IMG/VR virus record: IMGVR_UViG_3300027759_000003
Span: 45,758-109,757 of that record
DNA: 64,000 nt
Direction: 5' to 3' (one strand)
From: a virus
The notes under the pieces: generated by a model
What the model saw: the letters and a program-made list of their open reading frames with translations, nothing else
Told to the model about the DNA's origin: nothing
Database searches by the model: none
Part shown: positions 12,310 through 54,343 of the stretch, in pieces
Layout of the letters: each line of letters opens with the position of its first letter
Position numbering within the stretch: position 1 is the stretch's first letter
Program-made: the position numbers and the translations under genes

Positions 12310-12311
12310 TT

Positions 12312-18904: not shown

Positions 18905-18972
18905 GGATCCCGCCCATTCTGTGTTTATAACAGTATACCAGATTCTGATATACTTATAAGAAAGCGGGGTAT

Positions 18973-19665: not shown

Positions 19666-19667
19666 TC

Positions 19668-24883: not shown

Positions 24884-24895
24884 CAAAGGAGAAAT

Positions 24896-25096
24896 ATGAA
24901 AAAAGATAACGCAACTAAAATAAAAGAAACAAAGACAACACAATGTTTTAGTTATGAAATAACAATGTTAGTACACGTTATTTCTGATACCGAAACAAAC
25001 GCTAAAGCACAATTAGACGAAAAAGGCGGTATTGTTACAAAACGTAATGTACAATTAGTTAATAAATCAACTCTCTACGGAGAAGAAACGGAATAA
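24896..25096 (+). CDS. Small protein, paralog of 29553-29714
   Basis: CFSYEITMLVH...LDEKGGIVTKR. Confidence 0.7.
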   Translation: MKKDNATKIKETKTTQCFSYEITMLVHVISDTETNAKAQLDEKGGIVTKRNVQLVNKSTLYGEETE

Positions 25097-25098
25097 TC

Positions 25099-25440
25099 AT
25101 GGGTCACTATGCAAAAATAGAAGACGGAATTGTTACACAGGTAATCGTTGCCGATGGACCAGACTGGTGTGAAAAAAACTTAGGTGGTGAATGGGTTCAA
25201 ACCTCATACAACACACACGGTGGAGTTCATTCAGGCGGTAAATTTGCTATCCACAAAAATTATGCAGGTATTGGATACACATTTGACGGTATTGGCTTTG
25301 CCGCACCTCAACCTTATCCATCTTGGACAAAAAATTTAAACACATACTTGTGGGAAGCACCAACCCCAATGCCAGTTGATGACAAAATCTATCGTTGGGA
25401 TGAAGACACAACCTCTTGGGTTGAAGTAACACAAGAATAA
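25099..25440 (+). CDS. Small fibre-associated protein (MxHYA family), paralog of 55590-55940
   Basis: HYA..IVTQVIV, QTSYN, YAGIGYT, PQPYPSW, WEAPTPMP. Confidence 0.8.
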   Translation: MGHYAKIEDGIVTQVIVADGPDWCEKNLGGEWVQTSYNTHGGVHSGGKFAIHKNYAGIGYTFDGIGFAAPQPYPSWTKNLNTYLWEAPTPMPVDDKIYRWDEDTTSWVEVTQE

Positions 25441-25455
25441 AAAAAAGGTATCTAA

Positions 25456-27417
25456 ATGGCAGCCAAAAGAGTAGTTACCAGTAGTAGTATAGCCAACAGT
25501 TTTAAGATGAGTGTTGGACAATCTTCTGCTGCCATTCCAAATTCCCCGACAATCGGCACTGCTACTGCTGTAACAGGAACTACTGCTACTGTTGCTTATA
25601 CTGCTGCCGTATTAGGGGCTACAGCATCATCCTTTACTGCTACATCTAATCCAGGATCACTTACTGGTACTGGTTCTTCACCTATAACGGTTAGTGGTTT
25701 GACTGGTGAAACAAATTATACTTTTACAGTTTATGCAACTAATGCAAATGGTAACTCAGCGCAATCTGGTGCAAGTAATCAAATTACTACTCCTACTGCA
25801 AACTTAATTATTGATGCTCTTGTTATTGCTGGCGGTGGTGGAGGTGGAAGTTATGGAACTAGTGGTGGCGGCGGCGCAGGCGGATTATTATATTTTAGTT
25901 CACAAACTCTATCTCCTGCATCTTATGTAATAACTGTTGGAGCAGGAGGTGCAGCAGCCACTAATGGATATGATTCACAATTTGGTGCGTTAACTTCGGC
26001 TATAGGTGGTGGAACAACTGGAACTAATGGTGGTTCTGGTGGTGGTGCTGGTGACACTGGTAACGCTGGCTCTGGTGTAGTTGGACAAGGAAACAACGGA
26101 GGATCTAGGGGTGGAAGCATTGGTTTAGGAGGAGGAGGTGGTGCAGGAGGTGCTGGCGGAAATGGTTCAGGTAATGGTGGTGTAGGTGGTGCTGGTGTAA
26201 ACACATATTCATCTTGGGCATCTGCAACTTCTACAGGTGTATCTGGATATTACGCTGGCGGCGGCGGTGGCGCTGGCCATTATAGTCAACAGGTTGGAGG
26301 TGCAGGTGGTTCAGGTGGAGGTGGAAATGGTGGTTCTGCTGACACAGTTGCTGCTACTTCTGGAGTTGCAAATACAGGTTCAGGTGGTGGTGGTGGTGCA
26401 TTTGCTGGTTATAGTCCTAGTCCACTTGGTGGTTCAGGTGGTTCAGGAATTGTTATAGTTCGTTATCAATCTGGTACACAAAAAGCATTAGGTGGAACAA
26501 TTACAACATCTGGAGGATATTATTATCATACATTTACTGCATCAGGTATTTTTCAAACAGAGTATTCAGTAGCAAAAGCAACTGGCGGATCAATAAATAC
26601 TGATGGTACTTATTGGTATCACACATTTACTGGTTCAGGTACATTTACTCCTACTCAATCATTAACTGCTGATTATTTGGTAGTAGCAGGCGGCGGCGGT
26701 GGAGGAAACATGGGCGGTGGCGGCGGAGCAGGTGGACTTCGTTCTACTGTTACTGCAACAGGCGGTGGCGGTTCATTAGAATCATCAGTATCTTTAATTA
26801 ACAATACAGCATACGCAATTTCTATTGGTGCAGGAGGAACTAGTTCAGTTCAACATAATATTTCTGGCGGTCAAGGTGTAAATTCATCAATTATTGGTGG
26901 AGCAATCTCTATTACATCTACAGGTGGCGGTGGTGGAGCAAGTTATGCTTCAAGCCCAAGTAGTGGTGGTTCAGGTGGCGGCGGCCAGCGTTCTAATGGT
27001 GCAGGAGCATCTGGAACACAATATCAGGGTTATGCAGGTGGTTCAGGTGGTGGATATAGCGGTGGTGATGATAGTCTTTCATCTGGCGGTGGCGGAGGCG
27101 GAGCAGGTACTATTGGTGGTTCATATAATTCTGGAATTACTAAAGCAGGTAATGGTGGTAACGGTGTTCAAATTACTGCATTATCAACACCAACTGGAAC
27201 TGGTAAAGACAGTGGCTATTACGCAGGTGGTGGTGGAGGTGGTGGATATAACTCAACCGCTGGGTCTGCAGGTCTTGGTGGAGTAGCAGGTGTAACTGGT
27301 GGCAATAATGGTATATCTGGAACTCCAAATACTGGTAGTGGCGGTGGAGGTGGCGGTACTGGAAGAAATGGCGGACCAGGCGGTAGCGGTATAGTAATAA
27401 TTAGGTATGCAGTCTAA
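25456..27417 (+). CDS. FN3 + two glycine-rich domains (triad A, member 3)
   Basis: Same architecture as 22898. Confidence 0.85.
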   Translation: MAAKRVVTSSSIANSFKMSVGQSSAAIPNSPTIGTATAVTGTTATVAYTAAVLGATASSFTATSNPGSLTGTGSSPITVSGLTGETNYTFTVYATNANGNSAQSGASNQITTPTANLIIDALVIAGGGGGGSYGTSGGGGAGGLLYFSSQTLSPASYVITVGAGGAAATNGYDSQFGALTSAIGGGTTGTNGGSGGGAGDTGNAGSGVVGQGNNGGSRGGSIGLGGGGGAGGAGGNGSGNGGVGGAGVNTYSSWASATSTGVSGYYAGGGGGAGHYSQQVGGAGGSGGGGNGGSADTVAATSGVANTGSGGGGGAFAGYSPSPLGGSGGSGIVIVRYQSGTQKALGGTITTSGGYYYHTFTASGIFQTEYSVAKATGGSINTDGTYWYHTFTGSGTFTPTQSLTADYLVVAGGGGGGNMGGGGGAGGLRSTVTATGGGGSLESSVSLINNTAYAISIGAGGTSSVQHNISGGQGVNSSIIGGAISITSTGGGGGASYASSPSSGGSGGGGQRSNGAGASGTQYQGYAGGSGGGYSGGDDSLSSGGGGGGAGTIGGSYNSGITKAGNGGNGVQITALSTPTGTGKDSGYYAGGGGGGGYNSTAGSAGLGGVAGVTGGNNGISGTPNTGSGGGGGGTGRNGGPGGSGIVIIRYAV

Positions 27418-27476
27418 TAAATAATAAAATAATGATACAATGTTTTTATAACTTTGATTTTTTTGAAGGGATTTAA

Positions 27477-29003
27477 ATGGCAGTCAACAACCTAAATAAG
27501 GTAAAAATTCCAGGTACTGGAACTACTGCTGCCCGTCCATCTAATCCTGCTGTAGGAGATACTTTTTATAACGGTACCCTCGGAAGATTAGAAATTTATA
27601 CATCACAAGGATGGATGGCTTTAAATGCCCCAGCAGCAACCCCTACAGGTGTAACAGCAACAGACGCAGGTTCTGGCAGGGCATACAATAATGGCTCTGC
27701 ATCAATAGCATTTACTCCAGCAACAGCAGGTGGTCTACCAACATCATATGTAGTTACATCATCTCCTGGCTCCTATACTGCGACGGGATCAGTAAGTCCA
27801 ATCATAGTATCAGGTCAACAATCTTCAACTCAATATACATATACAGTAGTAGCAAGCAATGACTTTGGAACAGCAACATCTTCTGCATCTAGTGCAGTTA
27901 CTGCAACTACCGTGCCACAGGCTCCTACAATTGGTGCTGTAACTGGTGGAAATGCTTTAGCAACAGTTGCCTATACAGCAGGTGCAACTGGTGGTTTATC
28001 TAATACTTATACTGCTACATCATCTCCAGGTGGACTTACTGGTACTGGTTCAAGTCCTATTACAGTTTCAGGATTAACTAATGGAACTTCATATACATTT
28101 ACAGTAACAGCAACAAATGCTAACGGAACATCAGCAGCAAGTGCTGCAAGTAGTTCAGTAACTCCTGTTGCAGAAATTTTAGTTGATTACCTTGTACTTG
28201 CAGGAGGCGGTGGCGGAGGCGGAGGCGGTGGTGGTGCAGGTGGATTGCGTTCTACTGTAACTGCAAGTGGTCGTGGTACCGCACCCGAATCCAATTTAAC
28301 TTTATTACCTTCAACTAATTATGCGGTTACAGTTGGTGCTGGCGGTGCTGGTGTTCTGGGTTACGAAGGAACTGGTGCTGGTGGTGGCATCGGAGCAAAC
28401 TCTGTATTTAGCACTATAACTTCTCTTGGTGGAGGCGGTGGCGGAAGCAACGCTAATTTTGGTACTAACGGTGGTTGTGGTGGTGGAGCGTGTTATTCAT
28501 CAGGTCAGTCAGGTCCAGGAGCAGGAACTGCTGGTCAAGGATTTGATGGTGGTCAAGATACAGTTGATATTGCCCCATATCCTGGTGCTGGTGGTGGAGG
28601 AACTGGTCAAGCAGGACAAGTGCCCCTTACTGCATCTGTCCCTGGTCCTGGAGGTAATGGTACGGCTGTATCAATTACTGGTACATCAGTTACGTATGGC
28701 GGCGGAGGCGGAGGTGGAATATATCCTTACTCTTCTACTGGTGCTCCTGGTGGTACTGGCGGAGGCGGAAGTTCAAGTGGTGGAGTAGGTGGCGACGGTA
28801 CTGTCAATCTTGGTGGTGGCGGTGGTGGAAATTCAAGAACTCAAACAGGTGGCAATGGCGGAGCAGGTGTAGTTATTCTTAGATACCCAGACACTTTTAC
28901 AATTTCAATTGGAGCAGGTTTAACAGGAACTACAAGTTCACCAAGTGGCGGATACAAAAGAACAACATTAACTGCAGGTACTGGAAATGTGAGTTGGGCA
29001 TAA
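27477..29003 (+). CDS. Fibre protein: GTTAARP docking domain, two FN3, glycine-rich domain
   Basis: GTTAARPSNPAVGDTFYNGTLGRLEIY motif; FN3 x2; Gly-rich C-terminus. Confidence 0.85.
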   Translation: MAVNNLNKVKIPGTGTTAARPSNPAVGDTFYNGTLGRLEIYTSQGWMALNAPAATPTGVTATDAGSGRAYNNGSASIAFTPATAGGLPTSYVVTSSPGSYTATGSVSPIIVSGQQSSTQYTYTVVASNDFGTATSSASSAVTATTVPQAPTIGAVTGGNALATVAYTAGATGGLSNTYTATSSPGGLTGTGSSPITVSGLTNGTSYTFTVTATNANGTSAASAASSSVTPVAEILVDYLVLAGGGGGGGGGGGAGGLRSTVTASGRGTAPESNLTLLPSTNYAVTVGAGGAGVLGYEGTGAGGGIGANSVFSTITSLGGGGGGSNANFGTNGGCGGGACYSSGQSGPGAGTAGQGFDGGQDTVDIAPYPGAGGGGTGQAGQVPLTASVPGPGGNGTAVSITGTSVTYGGGGGGGIYPYSSTGAPGGTGGGGSSSGGVGGDGTVNLGGGGGGNSRTQTGGNGGAGVVILRYPDTFTISIGAGLTGTTSSPSGGYKRTTLTAGTGNVSWA

Positions 29004-34788: not shown

Positions 34789-34843
34789 ATTTTACTACGA
34801 ACTGGGAAAAATTACAAGGTATCGTAAGGTGATCTACATCACA
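34789..34843 (-). promoter_or_regulatory. Promoter TTGTAA-17-TAAAAT with bipartite phage motif and upstream CRP-like box
   Basis: -10 at 34789-34794, -35 at 34812-34817, GGTGA-N6-TCACA at 34828-34843. Confidence 0.7.
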
Positions 34844-35477
34844 CTGCTTTGGCTTGCTCCCCAATAGGTTTGAGGGTTCTCTTCAAGAAGTCCCCTAATA
34901 CTATTAATAACCTCTTCGTCAGACATGATCTCTCCGTCTGTGTTTATAAGTTCCATAATCTTATCTATGATCTCACCGTGGTCCATTAGTCTTCATCCTC
35001 ATCTTCATCAATTACATATGCAACATTAGACTGACCCTCGTGAAATGAAGGTGGGTCTTGCCATATACCCCAAGATAAAGAACTATCAGATAGGCCCTCT
35101 GACACTAAGTCTCCACCAAATTGCGATGAATATGTTTTAGTCACATTACCCATAGTATGTGTTCTCATCTATGTAACCTTCTGCTAACAAACCTTCAAAG
35201 AAGTCCCATATGGTTAATAGGCCTTGCTTTACTTTTGGGTCGGTAGCGGAATCAATAGCAACAGTTAAACTATTACCAAATTCTTGTATATCCTTGTATG
35301 TATAACCTAACATTATCTATCATACTCCTTAATCAAATTCATCGCAAAGTGAAGACAACAATCGCAGTCTCCATTATTCATGCTATATATAAAGTCAAAA
35401 TGTTCAGAGTTGTCCTCATATATATTCATTATTAGGCCGTCTATGGTTAGTGGTTTGTTAATTGTGGTCATGTTAAT

Positions 35478-35516
35478 ATTTTACAGGAAACTGGGGAAAA
35501 AGTCAATCTTTCTTAA
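35478..35516 (-). promoter_or_regulatory. Promoter TTGACT-17-TAAAAT
   Basis: Near-consensus hexamers; TTTTCCCCAG in the spacer. Confidence 0.75.
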
Positions 35517-35559
35517 TGAAACAATCATGTGTTATTATTTAAAGAAAGAAAACCCGGAG

Positions 35560-35633
35560 CGGCTCTGATGGGACTTGAACCCACGATCTCTACCGTGACA
35601 GGGTAGCGCATTAACCAACTATGCTACAGAACC
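35560..35633 (-). tRNA. tRNA-Asp(GTC)
   Basis: Reverse complement: GGTTCTG/CAGAGCC acceptor, CTACC-CTGTCAC-GGTAG anticodon arm, GTTCAAGTC. Confidence 0.92.
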
Positions 35634-35638
35634 AATGG

Positions 35639-35663
35639 TGAGCAGTTTTAAATCATGCTCAGG
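35639..35663 (-). ncRNA. Conserved 3'-UTR hairpin motif
   Basis: CC-TGAGCA-TG-ATTT-AAAAC-TGCTCA. Confidence 0.65.
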
Positions 35664-35671
35664 ATTTTTTA

Positions 35672-36688
35672 CTAAACTAGTTGCAAAGTTTTTTGCACAA
35701 CAGTTAGCAAACGATTTTTTTCTGCATTAGTTGCAGGGTCAAATCCAGAAGCAGCAGCAAACATGCTTTCGCCATTTGCACTACGAGATGAACGATACCA
35801 GTCTAAACGCTCAGTAAGTGCATTAAATGCGCCCCAAGCATTACCAGCAATCATGCCATTAAAATCACCAGTATAAATATCGTTAATCATATTTACCTTG
35901 TTTTCCCATTTCTTGATTGCACCCTTAGTATCTAATTCAGGTTTTGGATAAGCAGCAAGAATAATATCATTGAAATCTTTCGCTGATATTTCTTTTTGTA
36001 TCATAGCATGAGCCATCTTGTCGAATTCGTCCATGTATGAGTTAGCCATACCTAGTGCTTGACGAGCAACAGCAACCTTGCCATTGGCAGTTTGTGTATG
36101 ACGGATTTTGAAAGATTGCTTGACGCCATCTTTTTTCTTAGTACGATTGAGTGCAACATTAAGAGTGTTAGCGCACACAACACGAACGGGAGTGATAGAA
36201 GCCTGAATTGCAATAGAGCCATCATGGCTAGTGTTAATAAGCAAATAAGTTTTAACCTTATCCGCAACACCATTTGGGTCTAATACAGTTTCACGCTCTA
36301 AAGCAAGAGAGCCAAATACTACACGACCACCCTTAAGAGAGCCAGCAGTTTCCCAACGACCTCCACCATCAAGAATGTTATCGCCAAATGCAAATAACTC
36401 TTCATTTTGTAGTGGTGTGTATCGCTCACCAACAATTCCCAAAACATCAGTTTGAGATTTATCAGTTGGGTTTGTACGAACAACATATTGATATTGTTTG
36501 TCAGATACTAAACTAGATGGGATTTCTAAATCCTCTAGTCTAACATTCCAATTATTTAAGTTAGCAGCAACAAGCATTTCACTTGTATTTTTTTCAGTAT
36601 CAAATACTGTGCCAAGATTGTGCCATGCAGGCTCTCTAAATGAAGCAAAACTTGCTACGCCATTTTGAGTTTCTAAATCATGAGCCAT
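35672..36688 (-). CDS. DUF932/DUF945 (TIGR03299) phage/plasmid protein
   Basis: PAWHNLG, YTPLQN, ETAGSLKGG, NTSHDGS, TPVRVVCANTL, NAWGAFNALTE. Confidence 0.92.
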   Translation of the reverse strand: MAHDLETQNGVASFASFREPAWHNLGTVFDTEKNTSEMLVAANLNNWNVRLEDLEIPSSLVSDKQYQYVVRTNPTDKSQTDVLGIVGERYTPLQNEELFAFGDNILDGGGRWETAGSLKGGRVVFGSLALERETVLDPNGVADKVKTYLLINTSHDGSIAIQASITPVRVVCANTLNVALNRTKKKDGVKQSFKIRHTQTANGKVAVARQALGMANSYMDEFDKMAHAMIQKEISAKDFNDIILAAYPKPELDTKGAIKKWENKVNMINDIYTGDFNGMIAGNAWGAFNALTERLDWYRSSRSANGESMFAAASGFDPATNAEKNRLLTVVQKTLQLV

Positions 36689-36714
36689 TTTTATCCTTTC
36701 GGTTGTTTTAACTA

Positions 36715-36743
36715 AGTTTAGCAGTCATGACAGCCAATGTCAA
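36715..36743 (-). promoter_or_regulatory. Promoter TTGACA-17-(TGC)TAAACT
   Basis: Consensus -35 and extended -10. Confidence 0.75.
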
Positions 36744-36819
36744 ATAGGATTGGGGAAAATGGTTTAATCTTCTTAATTGGTATAAATCGGACATTTCGGG
36801 CGGGGCCGGGTTTTTGTTA

Positions 36820-36845
36820 GGGCCAGTTTTACGTCTTGGCCCACG
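36820..36845 (-). ncRNA. Conserved 3'-UTR hairpin motif (covariant copy)
   Basis: GGGCCA-AG-ACGT-AAAAC-TGGCCC. Confidence 0.6.
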
Positions 36846-36905
36846 ACGTTGATAGCCCCCTATCAAATTTAAGCGGTCCCTGCAGCGGATGCTACAGATC
36901 TCTTA

Positions 36906-37370
36906 TTAGTTCTCCTCAAGTGACACATCGTCTACAGTTAAGTCAGCGTCATAGTCATATGAACTTAATTCTGCATCAATGGTTACACTGCTTAGATCAA
37001 AGTCTTCAATCTCATCCAATGGGATGTTAATAGTTCCACTGAATGTAACGGTGCCGTATACACTCATTTGCTTTACAGGATTAAGATTAAAGTGTTGTGT
37101 TAGCGCTTTTAAAACTTCTTCTTTAGAATAGTTTGGGTCATACCATTCAGGAATTTGATCTTCAAGCCATGAGATGTCTAAACGACGCTCTGCTGCTAGA
37201 TTGGCATTAGTTCTGCCTTGATGTAGTTCCCATTCAAGATCAGTAACTTTATCAGTCATGAATGTAGGGCTTTCAGGTGCTGCATAGGTGTCAGGTATAG
37301 CCTTGTAGGTTACAAGTAGGTTAGGATTGTATGGAACAGATAACTGCTCCTGTGTCATTACTTCGCTCAT
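36906..37370 (-). CDS. Acidic hypothetical protein
   Basis: AAGGA RBS before MSEV. Confidence 0.7.
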   Translation of the reverse strand: MSEVMTQEQLSVPYNPNLLVTYKAIPDTYAAPESPTFMTDKVTDLEWELHQGRTNANLAAERRLDISWLEDQIPEWYDPNYSKEEVLKALTQHFNLNPVKQMSVYGTVTFSGTINIPLDEIEDFDLSSVTIDAELSSYDYDADLTVDDVSLEEN

Positions 37371-37440
37371 TAGGGGTTCCTTTTCTGTTAATACAATAAT
37401 ATCATCAAGATTGTGGGAATGCAAGTTCAGTTCTTAATTA

Positions 37441-37472
37441 GTCTCACATAATGAGATGTGATTTAGATCACG
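37441..37472. promoter_or_regulatory. Composite operator: RTCTCA-N5-TGAGAT plus CRP-like box
   Basis: GTCTCA-cataa-TGAGA-TGTGA-tttaga-TCACG; same arrangement at 38605-38636. Confidence 0.65.
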
Positions 37473-37505
37473 CTGCCCCGGATTTTTGCGGGGGGCAATT
37501 AAAGA

Positions 37506-37531
37506 TGAGCAGTTTAGAACTCATGCTCAGG
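37506..37531 (-). ncRNA. Conserved 3'-UTR hairpin motif
   Basis: CC-TGAGCA-TG-AGTTCT-AAAC-TGCTCA. Confidence 0.65.
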
Positions 37532-37585
37532 AGTCTTATCTCAGGAATAACTTAGCAATTAAGCCAAGTGCTTATCAGAGATAAA

Positions 37586-37756
37586 TTATTTAGTTGTGCT
37601 TACCATAGCAAGGCGTCTTGCGCCATTTGCTAATTGTAAGGATACTCTAGTGGTCTTAGAGTTGATAGGTGAGAACTTTACAATTCTACCTGTGATACCT
37701 GTTTTGCTTGTGGTGAATAAATCACCTAGTTGGTATGTGTATCCGCCTAGTGTCAT
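37586..37756 (-). CDS. Small basic beta-barrel protein, paralog of 38355-38525
   Basis: Not in ORF track: MTLGGYTYQLGDLFTTSKTGITGRIVKFSPINSKTTRVSLQL; AAGGA RBS. Confidence 0.7.
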   Translation of the reverse strand: MTLGGYTYQLGDLFTTSKTGITGRIVKFSPINSKTTRVSLQLANGARRLAMVSTTK

Positions 37757-37838
37757 GATTTTCCTTTTCTGTTGTGGTGGTTTGTTATATTAAGTATAAC
37801 ATTTTTGGGGGGGCAAGTCAAGAACCCCCCCAATACTA

Positions 37839-38261
37839 TTAGAGATAACGAGCAATAGCGTTATATGTGCTAGTGCTAACTGTTTCCTCGTCCGTCATTT
37901 TAAGGATACGGATAGCGTTCTCAAGTTCCTCTTTCATTTCACGATAAGTATGAGCATGGATTTGCTCAAAATTACGCTCAGGCTCTTTGGGAAAGTCTGC
38001 CTCATCTGTGATTAAATCAAAATCAACATTAAGGGTTTTGTTCCAAGAACGATAGTTAGTGCGTAGGTTTTCAGCCTTTGAGATGTTAGCAGTAGCAAAC
38101 TTAGCAACTTCTTTGCGCCATTTATCTACTTGCTTTTGGAACTTTGCTTCCAGTTCATCTTGATTTGTGTAGTCAGCATTTACTTGTGCTAACTTTGTTT
38201 CTAAGGCTTTGATAACCTTAGCAGTAGCGATTTTTACGCTGATGGGTTTGCTTCTTGCCAT
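37839..38261 (-). CDS. Hypothetical helical protein
   Basis: ORF track. Confidence 0.75.
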   Translation of the reverse strand: MARSKPISVKIATAKVIKALETKLAQVNADYTNQDELEAKFQKQVDKWRKEVAKFATANISKAENLRTNYRSWNKTLNVDFDLITDEADFPKEPERNFEQIHAHTYREMKEELENAIRILKMTDEETVSTSTYNAIARYL

Positions 38262-38308
38262 TTGGTTTGTTTCCGTTTCTGTTGGTGAGTTTGATGGGGG
38301 TATTAAGT

Positions 38309-38333
38309 TGAGCAGTTTCTCGTCATGCTCAGG
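38309..38333 (-). ncRNA. Conserved 3'-UTR hairpin motif
   Basis: CC-TGAGCA-TG-ACGAG-AAAC-TGCTCA. Confidence 0.65.
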
Positions 38334-38354
38334 ACTTTAGCCACTAGGCTAAGA

Positions 38355-38525
38355 TTAAGCGTTCTTTGCTGTCCAAGTTGTCCAGCGAGTTGAGCCATTA
38401 ACATCTAACTTAACTCTAACTGTGTTCTTGTTAGTTGGCACAATTTCGGTAATAGTTCCTACTACCTTTGATTTTTGTGATGTGTAGGTGTCGCCTACCT
38501 TGTATGTTGCGTTTGCTACGGACAT
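38355..38525 (-). CDS. Small basic beta-barrel protein
   Basis: AAGGAG RBS; TYKVGDTYTSQKSKVVGTITEI. Confidence 0.7.
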   Translation of the reverse strand: MSVANATYKVGDTYTSQKSKVVGTITEIVPTNKNTVRVKLDVNGSTRWTTWTAKNA

Positions 38526-38604
38526 GGTTCTCCTTCTTGTTGGTTTTTGCTTACTGTATAAGTCTAACATTTTTTGGTCAAAAATACAAATTATCTCATG
38601 GATA

Positions 38605-38636
38605 ATCTCATATATTGAGATGTGAGATATATCACA
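38605..38636. promoter_or_regulatory. Composite operator with perfect CRP box
   Basis: ATCTCA-tatat-TGAGA-TGTGA-gatata-TCACA. Confidence 0.7.
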
Positions 38637-38710
38637 CTTAATGCCCCATGCCTGAGAATAGGATATATAAGAATATAAGTGATAATACTATTAGTATCTC
38701 CATATGCCCC

Positions 38711-39439
38711 TTATTTCTTAGATGATGAAAAGACTATGTCGCTCTTAGAGTATACACACAAACCGCAAGATACGCAAGCCGAGCCAGCGCTTGAGATAAG
38801 TGGAATGGCTTTTAGGTTTTCAGGGCACTTAGCACCAGGTCGATTAAATAACTCCTTCATATCTGCCTGACCTATTGCAAAATTCTGTGCAAGGTATGCA
38901 AGGCGTATCCCATGATCTTTCTTTAAATTAACGCCTATCTGCTTATTCTCGCTGTCTGTTGAATAGTATAAGGATAGATTAGGAATATCCTTTAGCATTA
39001 CCGCTGCAGGCTGTACCCTTGTATATACCCAGAATTTTATATCTGTATTGTTAAGGATGATTTGTTTCCATGCTTTGGTGTACGTGTCATTAAAGAAATC
39101 ACCGTCCCAATGAATACGAAATAACAATGACGCATTTTTCTTTTCACAATCTTTTTTAAAATCATTAATCATATTCTGCAATAGATCAATCATAGTCGAT
39201 TCGTCAGCGTCTTTTAATAATTCCCAATTATGTATTAGGTTTGCCTTTACGGCTTTGTAAAGTTTTTCAAGTTTTCCTGCGTAGCAAACACTTTCACAAA
39301 CACTAGTGGCACCAGGGCATGAATAATTCTTTCCAGCGGGAAGACCGAACGTGTTTGCAATTGCGGCTTGCTTTCCATTTTTTGTAACAAGATTAGCAAC
39401 CTTTCTGTCAAATGATCTTTTTAATTGTGGTGTTGTCAT
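38711..39439 (-). CDS. GP88-like (radical-SAM-related Fe-S) phage protein
   Basis: FGLPAG..SCPGAT..C...CYA, FRIHWDGDF, FWVYTR, CxxCxxC. Confidence 0.8.
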   Translation of the reverse strand: MTTPQLKRSFDRKVANLVTKNGKQAAIANTFGLPAGKNYSCPGATSVCESVCYAGKLEKLYKAVKANLIHNWELLKDADESTMIDLLQNMINDFKKDCEKKNASLLFRIHWDGDFFNDTYTKAWKQIILNNTDIKFWVYTRVQPAAVMLKDIPNLSLYYSTDSENKQIGVNLKKDHGIRLAYLAQNFAIGQADMKELFNRPGAKCPENLKAIPLISSAGSACVSCGLCVYSKSDIVFSSSKK

Positions 39440-39445
39440 ATAAAT

Positions 39446-39484
39446 ATTTTAGCAGAATGTGGAGAAAATATCAAGTGTACGTAA
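39446..39484 (-). promoter_or_regulatory. Promoter TTGATA-17-(TGC)TAAAAT
   Basis: Hexamers at 39469-39474 and 39446-39451. Confidence 0.7.
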
Positions 39485-39542
39485 GGTACAAAACGGACAA
39501 ATCGGGCAGGGCCGGGTTTTTCTGCGGGGAAGTGCAGAAAAA

Positions 39543-39776
39543 TTATTCTAAGTGAACATACCAATCATAGTATTCATTATCAACTAACTGAGCGGTATCT
39601 TTTTCACCAAACTCATTTTGATACTCTGCATACCAAAAGTATTGGTCAGGATCAGATTCAATAGAAAGTATTTCAACTACCTCATCATTGTATCCAATAA
39701 AATCTCCAACCATCATCATAGAAGGTTTGAGAATATCTATTTTCTTTAATTCCATGTTCATCATTGTAGCAGCCAT
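39543..39776 (-). CDS. Hypothetical protein
   Basis: ORF track. Confidence 0.65.
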   Translation of the reverse strand: MAATMMNMELKKIDILKPSMMMVGDFIGYNDEVVEILSIESDPDQYFWYAEYQNEFGEKDTAQLVDNEYYDWYVHLE

Positions 39777-39861
39777 TTATTCAGCCTCAATTTCTGCTAG
39801 GGTTTCCCATAGAATAGGTTCTAGAATTTTTGCAACCTGATCTAATTTATCTTGCAAGTCT

Positions 39862-40158
39862 TTACTCATATAAGTCCTCATCTGCTGGCTCAATGAACCA
39901 CTCTAGGTGTGCGTGTGATACCAATGCGCTGGCGGTAGTCCAAGTGTTGCCCTTCCAACTAATTTGAAAGCCATCAACAACTGGTAATTCTATTCTACGA
40001 GAATAATCCTCCTCATAGTATGCGTCAATAGCCTCAATACATGGCTGAACCATTACTGTTGGTATTGGTGGATAATGATTACCTTGTAAGTGATACTTTA
40101 ATTGTGTTTCTAGGTCTAGCGTTGTATCTGCTAAACCTATTGCTGTTATGCTTCCCAT
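39862..40158 (-). CDS. Conserved phage hypothetical protein
   Basis: HLQGNHYPPIP...HLEWF. Confidence 0.75.
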   Translation of the reverse strand: MGSITAIGLADTTLDLETQLKYHLQGNHYPPIPTVMVQPCIEAIDAYYEEDYSRRIELPVVDGFQISWKGNTWTTASALVSHAHLEWFIEPADEDLYE

Positions 40159-40382
40159 TATTTAATTACGACCTCTCCGTTAGTGTAGAAGGTTTTAGTA
40201 TACATCTTACCTGTTGGGTCAGACAAATTATAGGTTGCGTATTCTTTAGCAAAGCCATAGTCCACGCATTTATCCCAAGCCCTAACTGCTTCTAGCATAT
40301 CGCTAACTCGCAGGGTATGAATTAACTCTCCATCATATGAAGTAGTAAGTGAATAAGTATATTCCATTAGTTTAGTTTCCAA
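40158..40382 (-). CDS. Hypothetical protein
   Basis: ORF track. Confidence 0.65.
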   Translation of the reverse strand: METKLMEYTYSLTTSYDGELIHTLRVSDMLEAVRAWDKCVDYGFAKEYATYNLSDPTGKMYTKTFYTNGEVVIK

Positions 40383-40556
40383 TCCATTAGTTCGTCAGCA
40401 GATATAGCGTAAGGATTACACTCGCAAGGCTCACTATCAAAGTCTACATTATTTCCTTGATATATCCAACCATAGCCGTAGCAGTATTCGTGCTCTAGTA
40501 TATCCATTAGTGCTTCTTTTACTTTACCCATTTGTTCCTTCTTTCTTTATATCTTT

Positions 40557-40578
40557 ATCCTATCAGATACAACTGACA
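40557..40578 (-). promoter_or_regulatory. PafBC/RecA-NDp-type promoter
   Basis: TGTCAG-N10-TAGGAT. Confidence 0.7.
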
Positions 40579-40678
40579 AAATCCAATTAGACGCCTTAAT
40601 CTGGGGAATTTAGGGTGTGATCTTAACCACACGTAAAGGTCATGTATAGATTGCGACACGCCGCCTGCGCCGGGTTTT

Positions 40679-40694
40679 TCGAACAAATGTTTGA
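40679..40694. promoter_or_regulatory. LexA (actinobacterial SOS) box-like site
   Basis: TCGAAC-aaat-GTTTGA, one mismatch to TCGAAC-N4-GTTCGA. Confidence 0.55.
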
Positions 40695-40716
40695 GCAGTT
40701 TTTATTCTTGCTCAGG
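40692..40716 (-). ncRNA. Conserved 3'-UTR hairpin motif
   Basis: CC-TGAGCA-AG-AATAA-AAAC-TGCTCA. Confidence 0.65.
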
Positions 40717-40877
40717 AATTTTTATTTATACTTTAAATGCTTTACGCAATTCATTTCGCAATCTGCGAATTTCTTTTTGTTGTGCAATATTTTGTTTCCA
40801 AAATAAACCCATAACAGTTAAGCAACCAAGTAGCGCAATTATTATTGCAATCACATCTAAATTAGTTATCATTTGTT

Positions 40878-41087
40878 TTACCCCTTCCACATTTCAGAGC
40901 CAACAGGAATTAAACCAATTTCATCAATTCCGCAAGCCTTTTCAAATCTTGCAAAATCAAAGTTTTCATTATCTGATTGAAACCAATCCGCAAATTCTTG
41001 AATTAAATCTTCATAAGTATTTTGTGGAATTTCATCTACAAAACTTTTTAGAATGTTTGCGGTTTTGATGTAGTCTTTTCTAGTCAT
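40878..41087 (-). CDS. Conserved small phage protein
   Basis: MTRKDY...DNENFDFARFEKAC family. Confidence 0.75.
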   Translation of the reverse strand: MTRKDYIKTANILKSFVDEIPQNTYEDLIQEFADWFQSDNENFDFARFEKACGIDEIGLIPVGSEMWKG

Positions 41088-41235
41088 TAGTCAGCCTCTT
41101 TCGTAGTAAATAAAGTGCCTAGTGCAAAGTTTTTACATTCGCACTTTTCTACATCATAGGCAAGATTATCTCCCCAAAAAATATAACCTGCGCCATTACA
41201 TTCATCACACTTAAAAGTCATTACGCTACTAATCA

Positions 41236-41421
41236 TTATGCTAACGCCTTTCCTCTAAGTGTGCCACGAACACCCAACACATCACAAGCAATTTTTACAG
41301 ATACGCCAACAGGTAATTGGTTTGGGTAAGTGTTTATGAATTGAGCAACCGCACCCTGAGAAGGTAGGTTGATATTTTTTACAGCACCATTAAAGGTTTC
41401 TAGTTTTACAGTATAAGTCAT
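41236..41421 (-). CDS. Small protein, paralog of 43416-43610
   Basis: VKLETFNG...FINTYPNQLPVG..RGK. Confidence 0.7.
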   Translation of the reverse strand: MTYTVKLETFNGAVKNINLPSQGAVAQFINTYPNQLPVGVSVKIACDVLGVRGTLRGKALA

Positions 41422-41454
41422 TTCTGACCACCTTTCGTTTTTGTTTGAGTTATT

Positions 41455-41476
41455 ATTCTATCAATTATCGCTGACA
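41455..41476 (-). promoter_or_regulatory. PafBC/RecA-NDp-type promoter
   Basis: TGTCAG-N10-TAGAAT; perfect CRP box upstream at 41505-41520. Confidence 0.7.
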
Positions 41477-41625
41477 TTTTCCAATTATAGGGGGTGTGTT
41501 GGAGTGTGAGTTGCCTCACATCTCCTTTATATTAGCCTGATGATAAGCAAGGGTTATCTCCTCGCCATACTCGGCTACTAGGTCGGCATAGACCTCATCT
41601 AGATAGTTAAGGTAATCAGACATTA

Positions 41626-41826
41626 TTAACCTACCTGAACCGCTACGGTGCGGAAAGTATTGTTAATGCGACCTTCATCTATTTCTACAAAATAGGCTTC
41701 AGTATTATCACCATACCAAAGAGCACCCTTAGATTTTTCTGCGGAAATAATTGTTCCGTCAGTTAAGGATTTAGATGAATAAGATTTACCAATTAGCAAA
41801 TCTTCTATTGTGTATAAGTTAGCCAT
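41626..41826 (-). CDS. Hypothetical protein
   Basis: AAGGA RBS. Confidence 0.7.
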   Translation of the reverse strand: MANLYTIEDLLIGKSYSSKSLTDGTIISAEKSKGALWYGDNTEAYFVEIDEGRINNTFRTVAVQVG

Positions 41827-41863
41827 TGTTAGCCACTTCCTTTCGTTATTTTCTTACTCCGTA

Positions 41864-41885
41864 AGTCTATCAGAATTAACAGACA
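41864..41885 (-). promoter_or_regulatory. PafBC/RecA-NDp-type promoter
   Basis: TGTCTG-N10-TAGACT. Confidence 0.65.
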
Positions 41886-41893
41886 TTTACAAC

Positions 41894-42005
41894 CTACTAG
41901 CCAGTAATCTCAAATAATAAGACGCTCAAACTGTGTGAGAAAAATCACATCGTACGTAAGTTATCCACAGGCTGTGGACGACACGCCATGCGTGCCGGGT
42001 TTTTT
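41894..42005. promoter_or_regulatory. Dense operator block (two palindromes, CRP box, paired DnaA boxes, GACAC, GCCGGGTTTTT)
   Basis: TGTGA-N6-TCACA 41934-41949; TTATCCACA 41961-41969; TGTGGACGA 41973-41981; GACACGCC 41980-41987. Confidence 0.7.
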
Positions 42006-42036
42006 GCAGAGTTTTTATTTCTGCAAAAATTTTTTA

Positions 42037-42153
42037 TTAGTTAAATTTATCTAATAAAATTTGTTTAACAATTTCTAATTGCGCTTCGGTTAAATTAGTT
42101 AATTCAACTGCGTTTTCAAATTGCTTAGTTATGCTTTCTGTATTATTTTGCAT
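42037..42153 (-). CDS. Small protein (38 aa)
   Basis: MQNNTESITKQFENAVELTNLTEAQLEIVKQIL; AAGG RBS. Confidence 0.5.
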   Translation of the reverse strand: MQNNTESITKQFENAVELTNLTEAQLEIVKQILLDKFN

Positions 42154-42265
42154 TTTTATGTTTTACCTTTCTACTATATTTTTTTTTATTTGGAATTGGT
42201 GTTGCCGCATTACTACGGCGCAATTCTTGAATACGAATAATTTTGTTTTTTATTTCTTTTAACAT
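42143..42265 (-). CDS. Small basic peptide (40 aa) with ArfA-like C-terminus
   Basis: RIQELRRSNAATPIPNKKKYSRKVKHK. Confidence 0.55.
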   Translation of the reverse strand: MLKEIKNKIIRIQELRRSNAATPIPNKKKYSRKVKHKNAK

Positions 42266-42698
42266 TTTATTATTCCCAACAATTAGAGCAAGTAATTATA
42301 TCTTGCTCATCAAAAAATTCGCTAGAAACTTTTTCATTACATAGACGACAATTAAGAGTTATCATTTATATTCTCCTTTTAAGATAAGTTCATCTAGCAT
42401 TTTTGCTAGAGGGTCTATCTGCTCGTCAGCAAGATAGTTAGTTAATTCTAAATCTTTTACAAAGTTTATCATTTACTTACCTACCTTCCATGAAGACCAA
42501 TAAGATAGCAATTCGCTATCCTCAATATAGTGAGAATAAATATTCTGCTCACAATTTTCGCAGAAACTATATTTCATATCATTTACGATAGATGTCGCTA
42601 ATAGATTAGCGGTGTGCTTACACACTTTGTTTAGTAGTGAATTCATTTTGAATTCCTTTCTTTAAGAGATTTACTTATTGTTCAATCTTTATACTAGA

Positions 42699-42720
42699 AG
42701 TATAACAGCGACCACTGACA
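42699..42720 (-). promoter_or_regulatory. PafBC/RecA-NDp-type promoter
   Basis: TGTCAGtg-N8-TATACT, matches TGTCRgtg-N8-TAnnnT. Confidence 0.75.
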
Positions 42721-42760
42721 TTTACTGACCAGTAGGTAGGACAAAACGGACATTGTGTCT

Positions 42761-42826
42761 TGTGATGTAGGTCATGTGGATAACTTGAGCGTGAAATGGG
42801 TATGTGATCTACGTCATGTGGATAAC
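42761..42826. repeat. Duplicated 24-bp composite CRP-like/DnaA element
   Basis: TGTGATGTAGGTCATGTGGATAAC (42761-42784) and TGTGATCTACGTCATGTGGATAAC (42803-42826). Confidence 0.85.
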
Positions 42827-42922
42827 CCTCTCAGACACACCCGACCGAGCCGGGTTGCATGTCCGATATGTCCGATATGTCGTGTGGTATATATCACTAA
42901 TTACATGCGTGTTATTTACGGC

Positions 42923-42959
42923 GTGTCGTGTTGACTTTTGGGGTTATCCCTGCTATAAT
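42923..42959 (+). promoter_or_regulatory. Promoter TTGACT-17-(TGC)TATAAT with GTGTC (WhiA-type) motif next to -35
   Basis: GTGTC 42923-42927, -35 42931-42936, -10 42954-42959. Confidence 0.75.
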
Positions 42960-43060
42960 TCCATTATAGAAAATTAAATATAGAATTATTTAGGGGCGTG
43001 AGCCTAGCAAGTAAATGTGAGACAAATCACAGTGAGCCTAGCAAATAACCCCCCCTAAAT

Positions 43061-43082
43061 TGTCAGCCCCCCCTGCTAGAAT
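43061..43082 (+). promoter_or_regulatory. PafBC/RecA-NDp-type promoter
   Basis: tTGTCAG-N10-TAGAAT; perfect CRP box at 43016-43031. Confidence 0.7.
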
Positions 43083-43415
43083 TGCAGGTATAGAAAGAAA
43101 GTCTCTTGAAAGGAGAACTACAAATGATAAACAATAACCCTAACAATCCCCTTATTTCGGATATTAGAAAAGCCCAACAGGCTCGCTATGACCGAGAGGA
43201 TCAGAGTATCCTTGAAGCGTTAAATCAGGCTAACGCCTATCTATCTGCTCAATACAATTTAGATGAGGAGGTTAAGTAGTTATGGAACTATTTTTAGACT
43301 TAGATGGTTTTGGTTTATATGCCGAGAGCATTGCCTTAGCAGTAGAGATACCAACATGGTTGTTGGTTGGCACTATTGCGTTCATTTATTCAATTAAATT
43401 GATTAGGAGAGACAA

Positions 43416-51890: not shown

Positions 51891-53105
51891 GTGTCAACCA
51901 AAAGACTATCGGATAAAACTAGTCTAGTTAATAGTTTTAGAATGGGTATGGGGGCGTCTAGTGCTGCCATACCTGATACCCCGACAATTGGCACCGCTAC
52001 AAAAACTGGTGGAACAGGCGCTACTGTTACTTATACCGCTGCAACTTTAGGAGCAAATGCTTCTTCCTTTACAGCAACTTCAAATCCAGGATCTTTAACA
52101 GGAACTGGATCTTCACCAATTACTATTAATGGATTAACTCCAGCAACAAATTATACTTTTACCGTTACTGCTACAAATTCAAATGGAACATCTGCAGCAA
52201 GTTCTGCAAGTAATGAAATTACTACAGATGCACTAGTATCAGTTTCTTACTTAGTTCTTGCTGGTGGTGGCGGCGGTGGACAAGGTGGCGGCGCTGGCGG
52301 CGGAGGTGGAGGAGCAGGTGGATATCGTACAAATTTTGAAGGAACATCTTTATCATTACTTTTATCAACTAACTATTCTGTAACTATTGGCGGAGGTGGT
52401 GTTGGAACTGCATATCCAAATCCTCAAAATTCTGGAACTAATTCTTCATTTTCTACTATTTCTGCAACGGGTGGCGGAGGAGGCGGAGGAGAAAGTTTAT
52501 CTGGTAATGGTGGAGGTGCTGCATTTAGAATTGGATCAACTGGTGGCTCTGGAGGTGGATCTAAGGGAGAGCAAGGAGTTGCAGATGGTGGTATTGCTAG
52601 TCGTGTAGGTGGAACTGGTAATGCTGGTGGATACTCTCCAGTAGAAGGTTATAATGGTGGTGTAATGATTGGAACTCCCCAGCCCAATGGTTCAGGTGGT
52701 GGAGGTGCTGGAGGGACAGGCGGTTCAAATAATAACTCAATTGGTGGCGCAGGCGGAGGCGGGGCTTCTAATTCAATTACTGGTTCGTCAGTAACCTATG
52801 GCGGAGGCGGAGGTGGTGCTGGATACTTTACTACAGGAGGTGCTGGAGGTAGTGGAGGTGGAGGTAGAGGTCAACAAAGAGATGGTCTTGCTGGAACTGC
52901 TGGTGAATCAAATAAAGGTGCTGGCGGTGGAGGTGCTACCAATATTACATCTTATAATGGTGGATCAGGAGTTGTAATTCTTAGATATCCAAATACATAT
53001 ACAATTTCAAATCCTGGTGGAGGATTATCAATGTCAACAAACACAGTTTCTACAGACAAAGTAACCACAATTACTGCGGGTACTGGAAACGTAAGTTTTG
53101 CATAA
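51891..53105 (+). CDS. FN3 + glycine-rich-domain adhesin (triad B, member 1)
   Basis: SAAIPDTPTIGTAT-FN3-Gly-rich. Confidence 0.85.
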   Translation: MSTKRLSDKTSLVNSFRMGMGASSAAIPDTPTIGTATKTGGTGATVTYTAATLGANASSFTATSNPGSLTGTGSSPITINGLTPATNYTFTVTATNSNGTSAASSASNEITTDALVSVSYLVLAGGGGGGQGGGAGGGGGGAGGYRTNFEGTSLSLLLSTNYSVTIGGGGVGTAYPNPQNSGTNSSFSTISATGGGGGGGESLSGNGGGAAFRIGSTGGSGGGSKGEQGVADGGIASRVGGTGNAGGYSPVEGYNGGVMIGTPQPNGSGGGGAGGTGGSNNNSIGGAGGGGASNSITGSSVTYGGGGGGAGYFTTGGAGGSGGGGRGQQRDGLAGTAGESNKGAGGGGATNITSYNGGSGVVILRYPNTYTISNPGGGLSMSTNTVSTDKVTTITAGTGNVSFA

Positions 53106-54343
53106 TGGCAAATAAAAGTATAAAAACAGGATCATCAATAATTGTTAGTAAATCTATTGCAGTAGGTAATACATCTGCCGCTATTCCAAATGCTCCAACT
53201 ATTGGCACTGCTACTAAGACAGGAATAACAACTGCAACTGTTACTTATACCGCTGCAGTTTTAGGTGCAACTGGCACAACTTTTACTGCTACATCAAATC
53301 CAAGTTCTATTACAGGAACTGGCTCTTCACCAATTACTATTAATGGATTAACTCCAGCAACAAATTATACTTTTACCGTTACTGCCACAAACTCTAATGG
53401 AACATCAACAGCCTCTGCTGCAAGTAATTCAATTACTACTGATGCTCAACCAATACTTTCAAGTGTTGATTATCTTGTTGTTGCAGGTGGCGGTGGCGGT
53501 GGTGGAGTAGGACAAACCGCAGGTGGAGGCGGAGGCGGAGGTGGAGGATTTAAAACTTCTACTAATTTTTCCATTAGTGGCTCTTTCACAGTAACAGTTG
53601 GTGCTGGCGGTGCAGGTGGTGCCGCAGGTAATAGTCATCCAGGTTCAAATGGTGGTAATAGTGTTTTCTCTACCATTACATCAACTGGTGGTGGTGGTGG
53701 TGGTTCGTATTCTAGTCAAAGTGCTGGTTTATCTGGTGGTTCAGGTGGTGGAGGAACTATTGGCGAAAGTGGTGGTGCTGCTTCTCCTGCTGGTCAAGGT
53801 AATGCTGGTGGAAACGCAAATGCAGGTAATGAAGGACAATTTCAACAAGGTGCTGGCGGCGGCGGTGCTGGTAGCGCAGGTGAAAATGTTGGAACAAATG
53901 GCGATACAACTGCTGGTGGAACAGGCGGATCTGGCTTAAGTAATTCATACTCAGGAAGTGCTGTTACCTATGCTGGCGGCGGCGGCGGCGGTGGTGGATA
54001 CTATAACGTATTTACTGCAGGACTTGGACAAGATGGTGGCGCTAATGGAACTGCTGGTTCAAGTTCAGGCTCAACAGATACCCCAACCAATGCGGTAGTA
54101 AATCGAGGCGGCGGAGGTGGTGGTGCTGGTGGTGATACTAATGGTGGTGGTGGTTACCCAAATACACCAGGAGGCAATGGCGGCTCAGGTGTTGTTATAT
54201 TGCGTTATGCAGATAATTATGCTGATTTAACTTCTATTAGTGGAAGTTTAGTTAAAACAGGTGGTGGAACAACGCCAACAACAACAACAGGTGGTTACAA
54301 AATTTATGTATTTACAGCAGGAACAGGAACGGTGACTATCTAA
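53105..54343 (+). CDS. FN3 + glycine-rich-domain adhesin (triad B, member 2)
   Basis: TAATG coupling; same architecture. Confidence 0.85.
   Translation: MANKSIKTGSSIIVSKSIAVGNTSAAIPNAPTIGTATKTGITTATVTYTAAVLGATGTTFTATSNPSSITGTGSSPITINGLTPATNYTFTVTATNSNGTSTASAASNSITTDAQPILSSVDYLVVAGGGGGGGVGQTAGGGGGGGGGFKTSTNFSISGSFTVTVGAGGAGGAAGNSHPGSNGGNSVFSTITSTGGGGGGSYSSQSAGLSGGSGGGGTIGESGGAASPAGQGNAGGNANAGNEGQFQQGAGGGGAGSAGENVGTNGDTTAGGTGGSGLSNSYSGSAVTYAGGGGGGGGYYNVFTAGLGQDGGANGTAGSSSGSTDTPTNAVVNRGGGGGGAGGDTNGGGGYPNTPGGNGGSGVVILRYADNYADLTSISGSLVKTGGGTTPTTTTGGYKIYVFTAGTGTVTI

Follow-up and report, generated by a model that had tools for sequence, protein, structure and literature searches.

PafBC-type hybrid promoters with CRP/GlxR- and DnaA-type elements in the small-gene arm of an uncultured actinophage: candidate sites for host regulators

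Introduction

Few phages are known to read host state through host regulators, and those that do depend on one factor, Spo0A for phi29 and LexA for certain temperate phages being examples. In the lytic Bacillus phages phi29 and Nf, sites for the host master regulator Spo0A are located in the early promoter and origin region (PMC2731898). The PafBC motif of actinobacterial promoters has the form tGTCgg(N10)tA(N3)T, of which PafB reads the GTC of the '-26 element', adapting sigma-A to promoters without a -35 element (PMC8635444). The RecA-NDp motif is reported across Actinobacteria (PMC8223512), and PafBC-dependent (RecA-NDp) promoters are read by this 'sigma adaptation' (PMC8635444, PMC8223512). 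Full-text searches of the literature with PafBC and RecA-NDp, also combined with phage terms, gave among their top results no report of a PafBC-type promoter on a phage. The present report concerns the intergenic DNA at 34.8-43.1 kb of a 64,000-nucleotide stretch of the IMG/VR record IMGVR_UViG_3300027759_000003, a region in which motifs resembling PafBC-type promoters, CRP/GlxR sites and DnaA boxes are stacked ahead of small genes. The whole stretch is called the window, and coordinates refer to it. A first-pass annotation had described the region as a switchboard of binding sites for host master regulators placed before the promoters of early genes.

Results

Motif enrichment and conservation

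Motifs were counted in the region's intergenic DNA (2,497 nt) and in 300 dinucleotide-preserving shuffles of the same DNA, with the 9,684 nt of the genome's other non-coding DNA as a second comparison and the whole genome against 30 dinucleotide shuffles as a third count. The CRP/GlxR-type palindrome TGTGA-N6-TCACA (GlxR consensus from PMC4254451) was found four times in exact form (shuffle mean 0.0) and six times with at most one mismatch (0.07), the DnaA box TTATCCACA three times (0.04) and the PafBC-type motif TGTC(A/G/T)G-N10-TAnnnT five times (0.07). The same DNA contains five copies of AACCCGGC, four of CCTGAGCA, four of ATGTCCG and two of TCTCA-N5-TGAGA. None of the 300 shuffles matched the observed count of any of these motifs, and all of them, the CRP-type palindrome in its exact form, had zero copies in the other non-coding DNA, in line with the remark in the first-pass annotation that the sites are missing from the structural operons. 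Genome-wide, all four exact CRP-type sites lay inside the region (0.1 expected), as did three of the four copies of TTATCCACA (1.4 expected), all five copies of AACCCGGC, in a single orientation, and four of the five copies of TGTC(A/G)G-N10-TAnnnT, to which one TGTCTG copy in the region is to be added. Reading of the gaps and a repeat finder located recurrent motifs in the gaps where the annotation had seen them stacked, and the two spots it had called densest are real (41.83-42.04 kb and 42.65-43.12 kb).

Relatives were collected as IMG/VR contigs (at least 378) that encode a protein closely homologous to that of the GP88-like gene (38711-39439). The conservation set consisted of 80 of these, with 76-100% identity in the GP88-like protein, a guanine-plus-cytosine (GC) content of 34-40% and 1.3 Mb of loci in all; the same patterns read backwards served as the control. 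The loci contained 309 CRP-type palindromes (backwards control 0), 294 DnaA boxes (15), 278 copies of CCTGAGCA (1), 111 of TCTCA-N5-TGAGA (0) and 503 PafBC-type promoters in gene orientation (13 backwards, 55 on the opposite strand), counts that are non-independent as the copies are related. When all palindromes of the 5-Nx-5 form were counted, TGTGA-N6-TCACA was by far the top palindrome of the lineage with 192 distinct contexts against 1.5 expected, and TCTCA-N5-TGAGA was present in 61 contexts. The CRP-type sites of the relatives have 99 different spacers with a preference for central TA, as in GlxR, and their DnaA boxes are paired, in either orientation, within unrelated flanks.

The region upstream of the first leftward gene is represented among the relatives by 45 distinct sequences, about 67% alike by a crude global alignment in which unrelated sequences were not compared. 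A PafBC-type promoter was present in all 45, a CRP-type site with at most one mismatch in 44, an ATGTCCG element in 40 and a DnaA box in 32, and the rightward sigma-A promoter was present in 38 of 45 distinct relatives. The divergent layout of the gap is conserved, and the protein encoded by the first leftward gene falls to 35-45% identity in relatives. The many spacers of the CRP-type site, its rank among palindromes, the unrelated flanks of the DnaA boxes and the retention of motifs in diverged upstream sequences together argue for selection acting on the motifs themselves. The CRP/GlxR, DnaA and PafBC consensus matches of the first-pass annotation thus exceed all 300 shuffles, are confined to the arm and recur in the 80 relatives against diverged flanks; the three motif families are real cis-elements of the whole phage lineage.

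Hybrid promoters and upstream elements

The five window copies of TGTC(A/G/T)G-N10-TAnnnT are located within 2.6 kb, each directed at the next gene (Table 1). The consensus in the lineage is aaaTGTCAG followed by seven variable bases, cTGn and TAnaaT, the last parts of which form an extended sigma-A -10; no -35-like conservation was seen at 16-18 nt, and only one copy in the window (41455-41476) has a 9-of-12 match to sigma-70. Spacing is rigid in the relatives, with 188 distinct sites at N10 against at most 6 at any other spacer from N6 to N14. The elements have the 22-nt form tGTCgg(N10)tA(N3)T with the invariant GTC as well as a sigma-A -10 without a -35. Some phage copies read TGTC(A/G)GTGG, which we take to be the RecA-NDp core. 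Elements of the ATGTCCG type, similar to the -26 element, repeat at steps of 9-13 nt between palindrome and promoter. A possible operator is a further palindrome, TATACT-TCT-AGTATA (42690-42706), which is also conserved in relatives and overlaps both the -10 and the presumed transcription start at the head leftward promoter.

The window contains four exact and four near-exact sites of the 16-bp CRP-type palindrome. With the transcription start set 12 nt downstream of the initial base of the -10, the centres of the CRP-type sites upstream of hybrid promoters fall at -64.5 in 44 distinct contexts, at -74.5 in 9 and at -84.5/-85.5 in 13; a few more are near -95 and -104. Steps of 10 bp are suggestive of binding on one helical face in the manner of a class-I activator. 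The sites at 38621 and 37457, which abut a second palindrome near gene starts, look like sites of repression.

Three perfect DnaA boxes within 865 nt, against 0.04 expected, constitute a box cluster. In relatives, DnaA boxes are located at -86 to -130 of hybrid promoters in 123 of 207 distinct contexts. Two of the window's boxes lie in the divergent gap, together with two PafBC-type promoters, one sigma-A promoter, CRP-type sites and repeats of ATGTCCG and GCTAGGCTCA. Arrays of the GCTAGGCTCA direct repeat (42999-43042 in the window; also in L014, L029, L033 and other relatives), each of 2-4 copies at a 28-34-nt period, separate the sigma-A promoter that faces rightward from the hybrid promoter of the same direction. 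The slot between the repeats, occupied in the window by the CRP-type site at 43016-43031, holds CRP-type, LexA-type, CCTC-N5-GAGG or ATAAC-N6-GTTAT palindromes in relatives. This variation could reflect exchange of operators; a leader RNA rich in hairpins and an origin of the iteron type are other possible explanations.

Table 1. Coordinates of promoters, candidate regulator sites and associated elements in the window.
Feature	Coordinates	Strand	Remarks
Divergent control gap	42647-43123		between first leftward gene (42473-42646) and first rightward gene (43124-43279)
PafBC-type hybrid promoter TGTCAG-N10-TAGAAT	43061-43082	+	heads rightward genes; geometry as tGTCgg(N10)tA(N3)T (PMC8635444)
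PafBC-type hybrid promoter TGTCAGTGG..., RecA-NDp-like variant	42699-42720	-	heads leftward arm
PafBC-type promoter, TGTCTG variant	41864-41885	-	before gene 41626-41826
PafBC-type promoter	41455-41476	-	before gene 41236-41421
PafBC-type promoter	40557-40578	-	before gene 40367-40531
CRP/GlxR-type palindrome, exact	43016-43031		between GCTAGGCTCA repeats at 42999-43008 and 43033-43042
CRP/GlxR-type palindrome, exact	41934-41949		about -84.5 from inferred start of promoter 41864-41885
CRP/GlxR-type palindrome, exact	41505-41520		about -64.5 from inferred start of promoter 41455-41476
CRP/GlxR-type palindrome, exact	38621-38636		abuts TCTCA-N5-TGAGA palindrome (38606-38620)
CRP-type palindrome, one mismatch	37457-37472		abuts TCTCA-N5-TGAGA palindrome (37442-37456)
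CRP-type palindrome, one mismatch	40616-40631		upstream of promoter 40557-40578
CRP-type palindrome, one mismatch	34828-34843		upstream of sigma-A-like promoter 34789-34817
CRP-type palindrome, degenerate, two mismatches	42883-42898		conserved in relatives
DnaA box, perfect	42775-42783	-	inside 24-nt direct repeat
DnaA box, perfect	42817-42825	-	in second copy of 24-nt direct repeat
DnaA box, perfect	41961-41969	+	in inverted pair, upstream of promoter 41864-41885
Sigma-A promoter, near-consensus, TTGACT-N17-TATAAT with TGn	42931-42959	+	rightward
Sigma-A-type promoter	39446-39474	-	before GP88-like gene
Sigma-A-type promoter	37793-37821	-	set in G7/C7 inverted repeat
Sigma-A-type promoter	36715-36743	-	before DUF932 gene
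Sigma-A-type promoter	35478-35506	-	downstream of tRNA-Asp
Sigma-A-like promoter, weaker (9 of 12)	34789-34817	-	
LexA/SOS-box-like palindrome	40679-40694		one mismatch to TCGAAC-N4-GTTCGA; only site in window
AACCCGGC elements, five	41994-42001; others start at 36805, 39511, 40669 and 42849	-	+ strand reads GC hairpin, then T run
CCTGAGCA...CTGCTCA elements, 33 nt, four	35639-35671, 37505-37537, 38309-38341, 40692-40724	-	at gene 3' ends

Other elements of the region

The outer units (34.8-39.5 kb) have ordinary sigma-A promoters of the form TTGACN-N17-TAnAAT, often with TGn. Six sigma-70 matches of at least 10 of 12 stand out, five of them with 17-nt spacing and five at gene heads; the loose sigma-70 matches as a class show no excess over shuffles (28 against 30.6). 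The LexA match of the first-pass annotation is represented in the window by the single LexA-like palindrome of Table 1, which differs by one base from the SOS box. In two relatives a perfect LexA-type core is found, apparently at the matching position, and in the lineage CGAAC-N4-GTTCG occurs 16 times in 15 of the 80 loci and GAACA-N2-TGTTC in 22 contexts against 1.5 expected; some of these LexA-type copies occupy the slot between GCTAGGCTCA repeats. By these counts the LexA-type palindrome is sporadic in relatives, yet non-random. The WhiA match was not supported: the genome as a whole has fewer copies of its core, GACAC, than expected (85 against 127), and the mild rise in the region (6 against 2.5, reached by 12 of 300 shuffles) results from its being part of the longer repeat CGACACGCC.

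Read antisense to the genes, the AACCCGGC elements resemble terminators. In the CCTGAGCA elements a 6-bp stem is present and the 4-5 preceding bases co-vary with the loop, so that an RNA pseudoknot seems likelier than a site for a regulator.

Phage genome and gene layout

The window makes up the final 64 kb of a single-contig, 109,757-bp record (G000:C1:45758-109757; 36.7% GC, 72-nt end overlap), entered in IMG/VR as a complete virus with direct terminal repeats. The genome encodes portal, protease, capsid protein, large terminase, DnaB, a DnaE-type polymerase and ribonucleotide reductase. This polymerase shares 52-55% identity with those of the Streptomyces phages BillNye, Circinus and Wakanda (Stanwilliamsviridae), and a WhiB gene is located at 12279-12596 (44 bits). 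A nucleotide search of a phage collection gave zero near matches, and a distant search gave only tRNA matches and one 120-nt match to Streptomyces phages. Since WhiB is present and the DnaE relatives are Streptomyces phages, the assignment to an actinophage made in the first-pass annotation is upheld despite the low GC content, and a low-GC non-actinobacterial host, considered for the 37% GC, was rejected. The related Streptomyces phages themselves have a GC content far below that of their hosts (about 72%), and GC is therefore not diagnostic of the host. The phage, which is uncultured, is distantly related to the Streptomyces phages of the Stanwilliamsviridae and is best explained as a lytic-type, freshwater-like actinophage.

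Between about 29.4 and 42.65 kb every plausible gene is small and on the minus strand, and from 43.12 kb genes are on the plus strand, so that the region consists of a leftward small-gene arm and a 477-bp divergent gap. The designation of these genes as early is inferred from this architecture. Family matches were obtained for two arm proteins only, DUF932 and GP88, and a tRNA-Asp is located within the arm. The GP88-family protein contains C-x6-C-x3-C and C-x2-C-x2-C motifs invariant in 32 homologues, which suggests an iron-sulfur enzyme. The GP88-like and other mid-size arm proteins were considered as regulators and rejected; for the former, the invariant cysteines are of the iron-sulfur type and no PDB relatives were found.

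Elsewhere in the window, seven paralogues with fibronectin type III and Gly_rich_2 domains (PF21722, phrog_2295) form two clusters (21738-29003 and 51891-55539), and their genes have 43-48% GC, well over the genome mean. A minus-strand cluster at 13726-20450, of which the first gene (13726-14763) encodes a glycosyltransferase, probably comprises the sugar-modification genes of the genome; epimerase/dehydratase, further glycosyltransferase and methyltransferase families are present in the genome, without mapping to individual genes. Other phage genes code for a RecA/UvsX-like recombinase, SSB, Hsp20, a ferredoxin and a DUF7455 protein (8490-8747).

Candidate readers

With E up to 1 as the limit, six-frame family searches of the whole phage detected no HTH_Crp_2, cNMP-binding, WYL or DnaA C-terminal domain. 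In Pfam and PHROG scans of 119 proteins, WhiB was the sole transcription factor among the 25 families listed per library, and 20 small arm proteins had no DNA-binding Pfam match. That no such reader was detected in the phage weakly favours readers from the host, the weight being small because most of the arm proteins are orphans.

On the host side, small Actinomycetota genomes reached via a mis-binned phage contig were chosen by size and GC, 12 of them with 29-42% GC; genomes flagged as unpublished contributed to no claim. Adjacent paired WYL genes, the pafB-pafC arrangement, were found in three of these 12, and in two of the three recA is preceded by a motif of PafBC form (GTC and two bases, N10, TAttaT). 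The motif was not found upstream of recA in the higher-GC small genomes, for which the search pattern was one base off. Perfect DnaA boxes and CRP-type sites were neither clustered nor enriched in the sampled genomes. A TGTCAG match common to two genomes was discarded, since it proved to be coding sequence. A search for the host by WhiB in genome contigs matched only probable mis-binned phage contigs, and a protein atlas resolved the phylum only. The short contigs L085, L086 and L087, with phage-like WhiB genes (62-70% identity), are binned in metagenome-assembled genomes of Acidimicrobiaceae and Chitinophagaceae and are probably phage contigs mis-binned into bacterial bins.

Discussion

We propose that the stretch is a promoter-dense small-gene arm with a divergent control gap, whose transcription is divided among numerous short units. 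Those of the inner part (40.5-43.1 kb), leftward and rightward alike, are headed by -35-less hybrid promoters in which AAATGTCAG is placed exactly 10 nt ahead of an extended -10, as in actinobacterial PafBC/RecA-NDp promoters. Upstream of them are ATGTCCG repeats, CRP/GlxR palindromes near -64.5, -74.5 and -84.5 and DnaA boxes between about -86 and -130, which would provide additional inputs. The readers would be DnaA, a CRP-family dimer serving as a class-I-like activator, and the host's RNA polymerase with sigma-A adapted through a PafBC-type factor; since no Crp, WYL or DnaA domain was detected in the phage, host readers are the most economical. The first genes would then be expressed according to the DNA damage or single-stranded DNA (ssDNA), cyclic AMP and replication state of the host. 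That host proteins read at least the main elements we consider an evenly balanced proposition. The more specific proposal that the first genes of the lineage require host PafBC, with a CRP-family protein and DnaA bound in phase upstream and operator slots swapped among relatives, is put forward only tentatively. As for the switchboard of host regulators envisaged by the first-pass annotation, the motifs make it plausible for PafBC, CRP and DnaA, marginal for LexA and unsupported for WhiA.

Several observations weigh against host readers. The phasing of the CRP-type sites is suggestive, with a Rayleigh p of about 0.003-0.02 for 8 loosely independent clusters, many contexts being orthologous and the merging excessive. 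Of the 12 low-GC small Actinomycetota genomes, nine have no WYL genes, none encodes a cNMP-binding protein (against 8 of 10 higher-GC small genomes) and none is enriched in CRP-type sites. In BillNye, the Streptomyces relative, neither a PafBC-type promoter nor an excess of CRP sites was found, though Streptomyces has PafBC and Crp. The small arm proteins, mostly orphans, could be novel DNA binders, and the phage WhiB could likewise retarget sigma-A. An alternative explanation, for which the observations on BillNye and on the WYL and cNMP-binding proteins of the low-GC genomes also speak, is that phage-encoded factors, either small early proteins or WhiB, read the motifs; the likeness to PafBC, CRP and DnaA sites would then be convergent or coincidental. 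An example would be a factor that retargets sigma-A to the -26 element in the manner of MotA/AsiA for a delayed-early class, together with a phage dimer on the palindrome. The motif set is specific to the lineage, the dominant palindrome of a phage is usually the operator of its own regulator, and the sigma-A promoters would be available to express such factors first. Moreover, TCTCA-N5-TGAGA and the TATACT-TCT-AGTATA palindrome over the start site are specific palindromes with no recognised host counterpart. The explanation by phage factors is opposed by the three independent motifs, which exactly match canonical actinobacterial consensus sequences down to the strict N10, by the failure to detect Crp, WYL, DnaA_C or another DNA-binding domain in the phage, and by the head leftward operon, which has a hybrid promoter only and would be silent until the phage factor was made. 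Reading by phage factors is on balance somewhat doubtful, though a serious contender.

The DnaA boxes allow the additional, compatible possibility that the divergent gap is a replication origin, perhaps combined with a control region, in which the boxes serve initiation. Two perfect boxes 42 nt apart adjoin an AT-rich segment and direct repeats with a 28-34-nt period, a layout classical for iteron origins such as those of lambda and P1; the flanking promoters would supply transcriptional activation, and the phage brings DnaB and DnaE, yet no recognised initiator. A third box in the second promoter module (41961), the tracking of PafBC-type promoters by the boxes of relatives and the varied small palindromes that separate the GCTAGGCTCA repeats, more like hairpins or operators than iterons, point away from an origin, as do a GC skew that merely mirrors the direction of transcription and the distance of about 50 kb to the replication genes; we regard it as unlikely. 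The first-pass annotation had also offered a decoy idea, in which the sites would titrate host regulators or make the infecting DNA pass for chromosome. All that speaks for it is how densely consensus-grade sites are packed; the idea is unsupported and very improbable, since the sites are few per genome, strand-oriented, apparently phased and at fixed distances from promoters, properties that cis-regulation predicts and titration does not need. Finally, chance matches arising from AT-rich intergenic composition would account for the loose sigma-70 class and for GACAC and the single LexA-like site, both of which this genome contains at close to the chance level. A chance origin of the CRP-type, DnaA-box and PafBC-type motifs is refuted by the shuffles and by the relatives, with hundreds of copies against 0-15 in controls, and as a general explanation its probability is negligible.

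If host readers are correct, sigma adaptation would be exploited by a common environmental phage group (at least 378 related IMG/VR contigs), early phage expression would be tied to an ssDNA signal made by infection itself, and a lytic phage would sense several host state signals via host regulators alone. Even with phage readers, the elements would define a new promoter class of strict geometry together with a dominant operator.

Among described systems, iteron origins (lambda, P1 oriR) share with the divergent gap the paired DnaA boxes, the AT-rich segment, the regular direct repeats and transcription of the intergenic region, and differ in that the phage has variable palindromic spacers, no adjacent initiator gene and boxes also at a second promoter module. 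In the middle promoters of T4, which depend on a MotA box and sigma appropriation by AsiA, both factors being phage-encoded, the -10 is likewise kept and the -35 replaced by an element about 30 bp upstream, whereas no homologue of factors of the MotA/AsiA type was found in the present phage. The CRP-type sites agree with CRP/GlxR class-I-type sites (PMC4254451) in the exact 16-bp palindrome, the preference for central TA and, suggestively, the steps of about 10 bp upstream of promoters. They differ in lying near -64.5, -74.5 and -84.5 from inferred starts, ahead of PafBC-type rather than -35 promoters, and in the two repression-like sites that abut a second palindrome near gene starts. The hybrid promoters match PafBC/RecA-NDp promoters in the 22-nt GTC element-N10-TAnnnT architecture, the lack of a -35, the extended sigma-A -10 and, in some copies, TGTC(A/G)GTGG. 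They depart from them in number (five copies in 2.6 kb and hundreds across the lineage), in a position 5 that is mostly A and in an A/T-rich upstream flank, and the host may lack PafBC. The closest precedent is that of phi29 and Nf, also lytic phages with sites for a host regulator; there a single regulator was established by experiment, whereas here up to three or four candidates are deduced from sequence.

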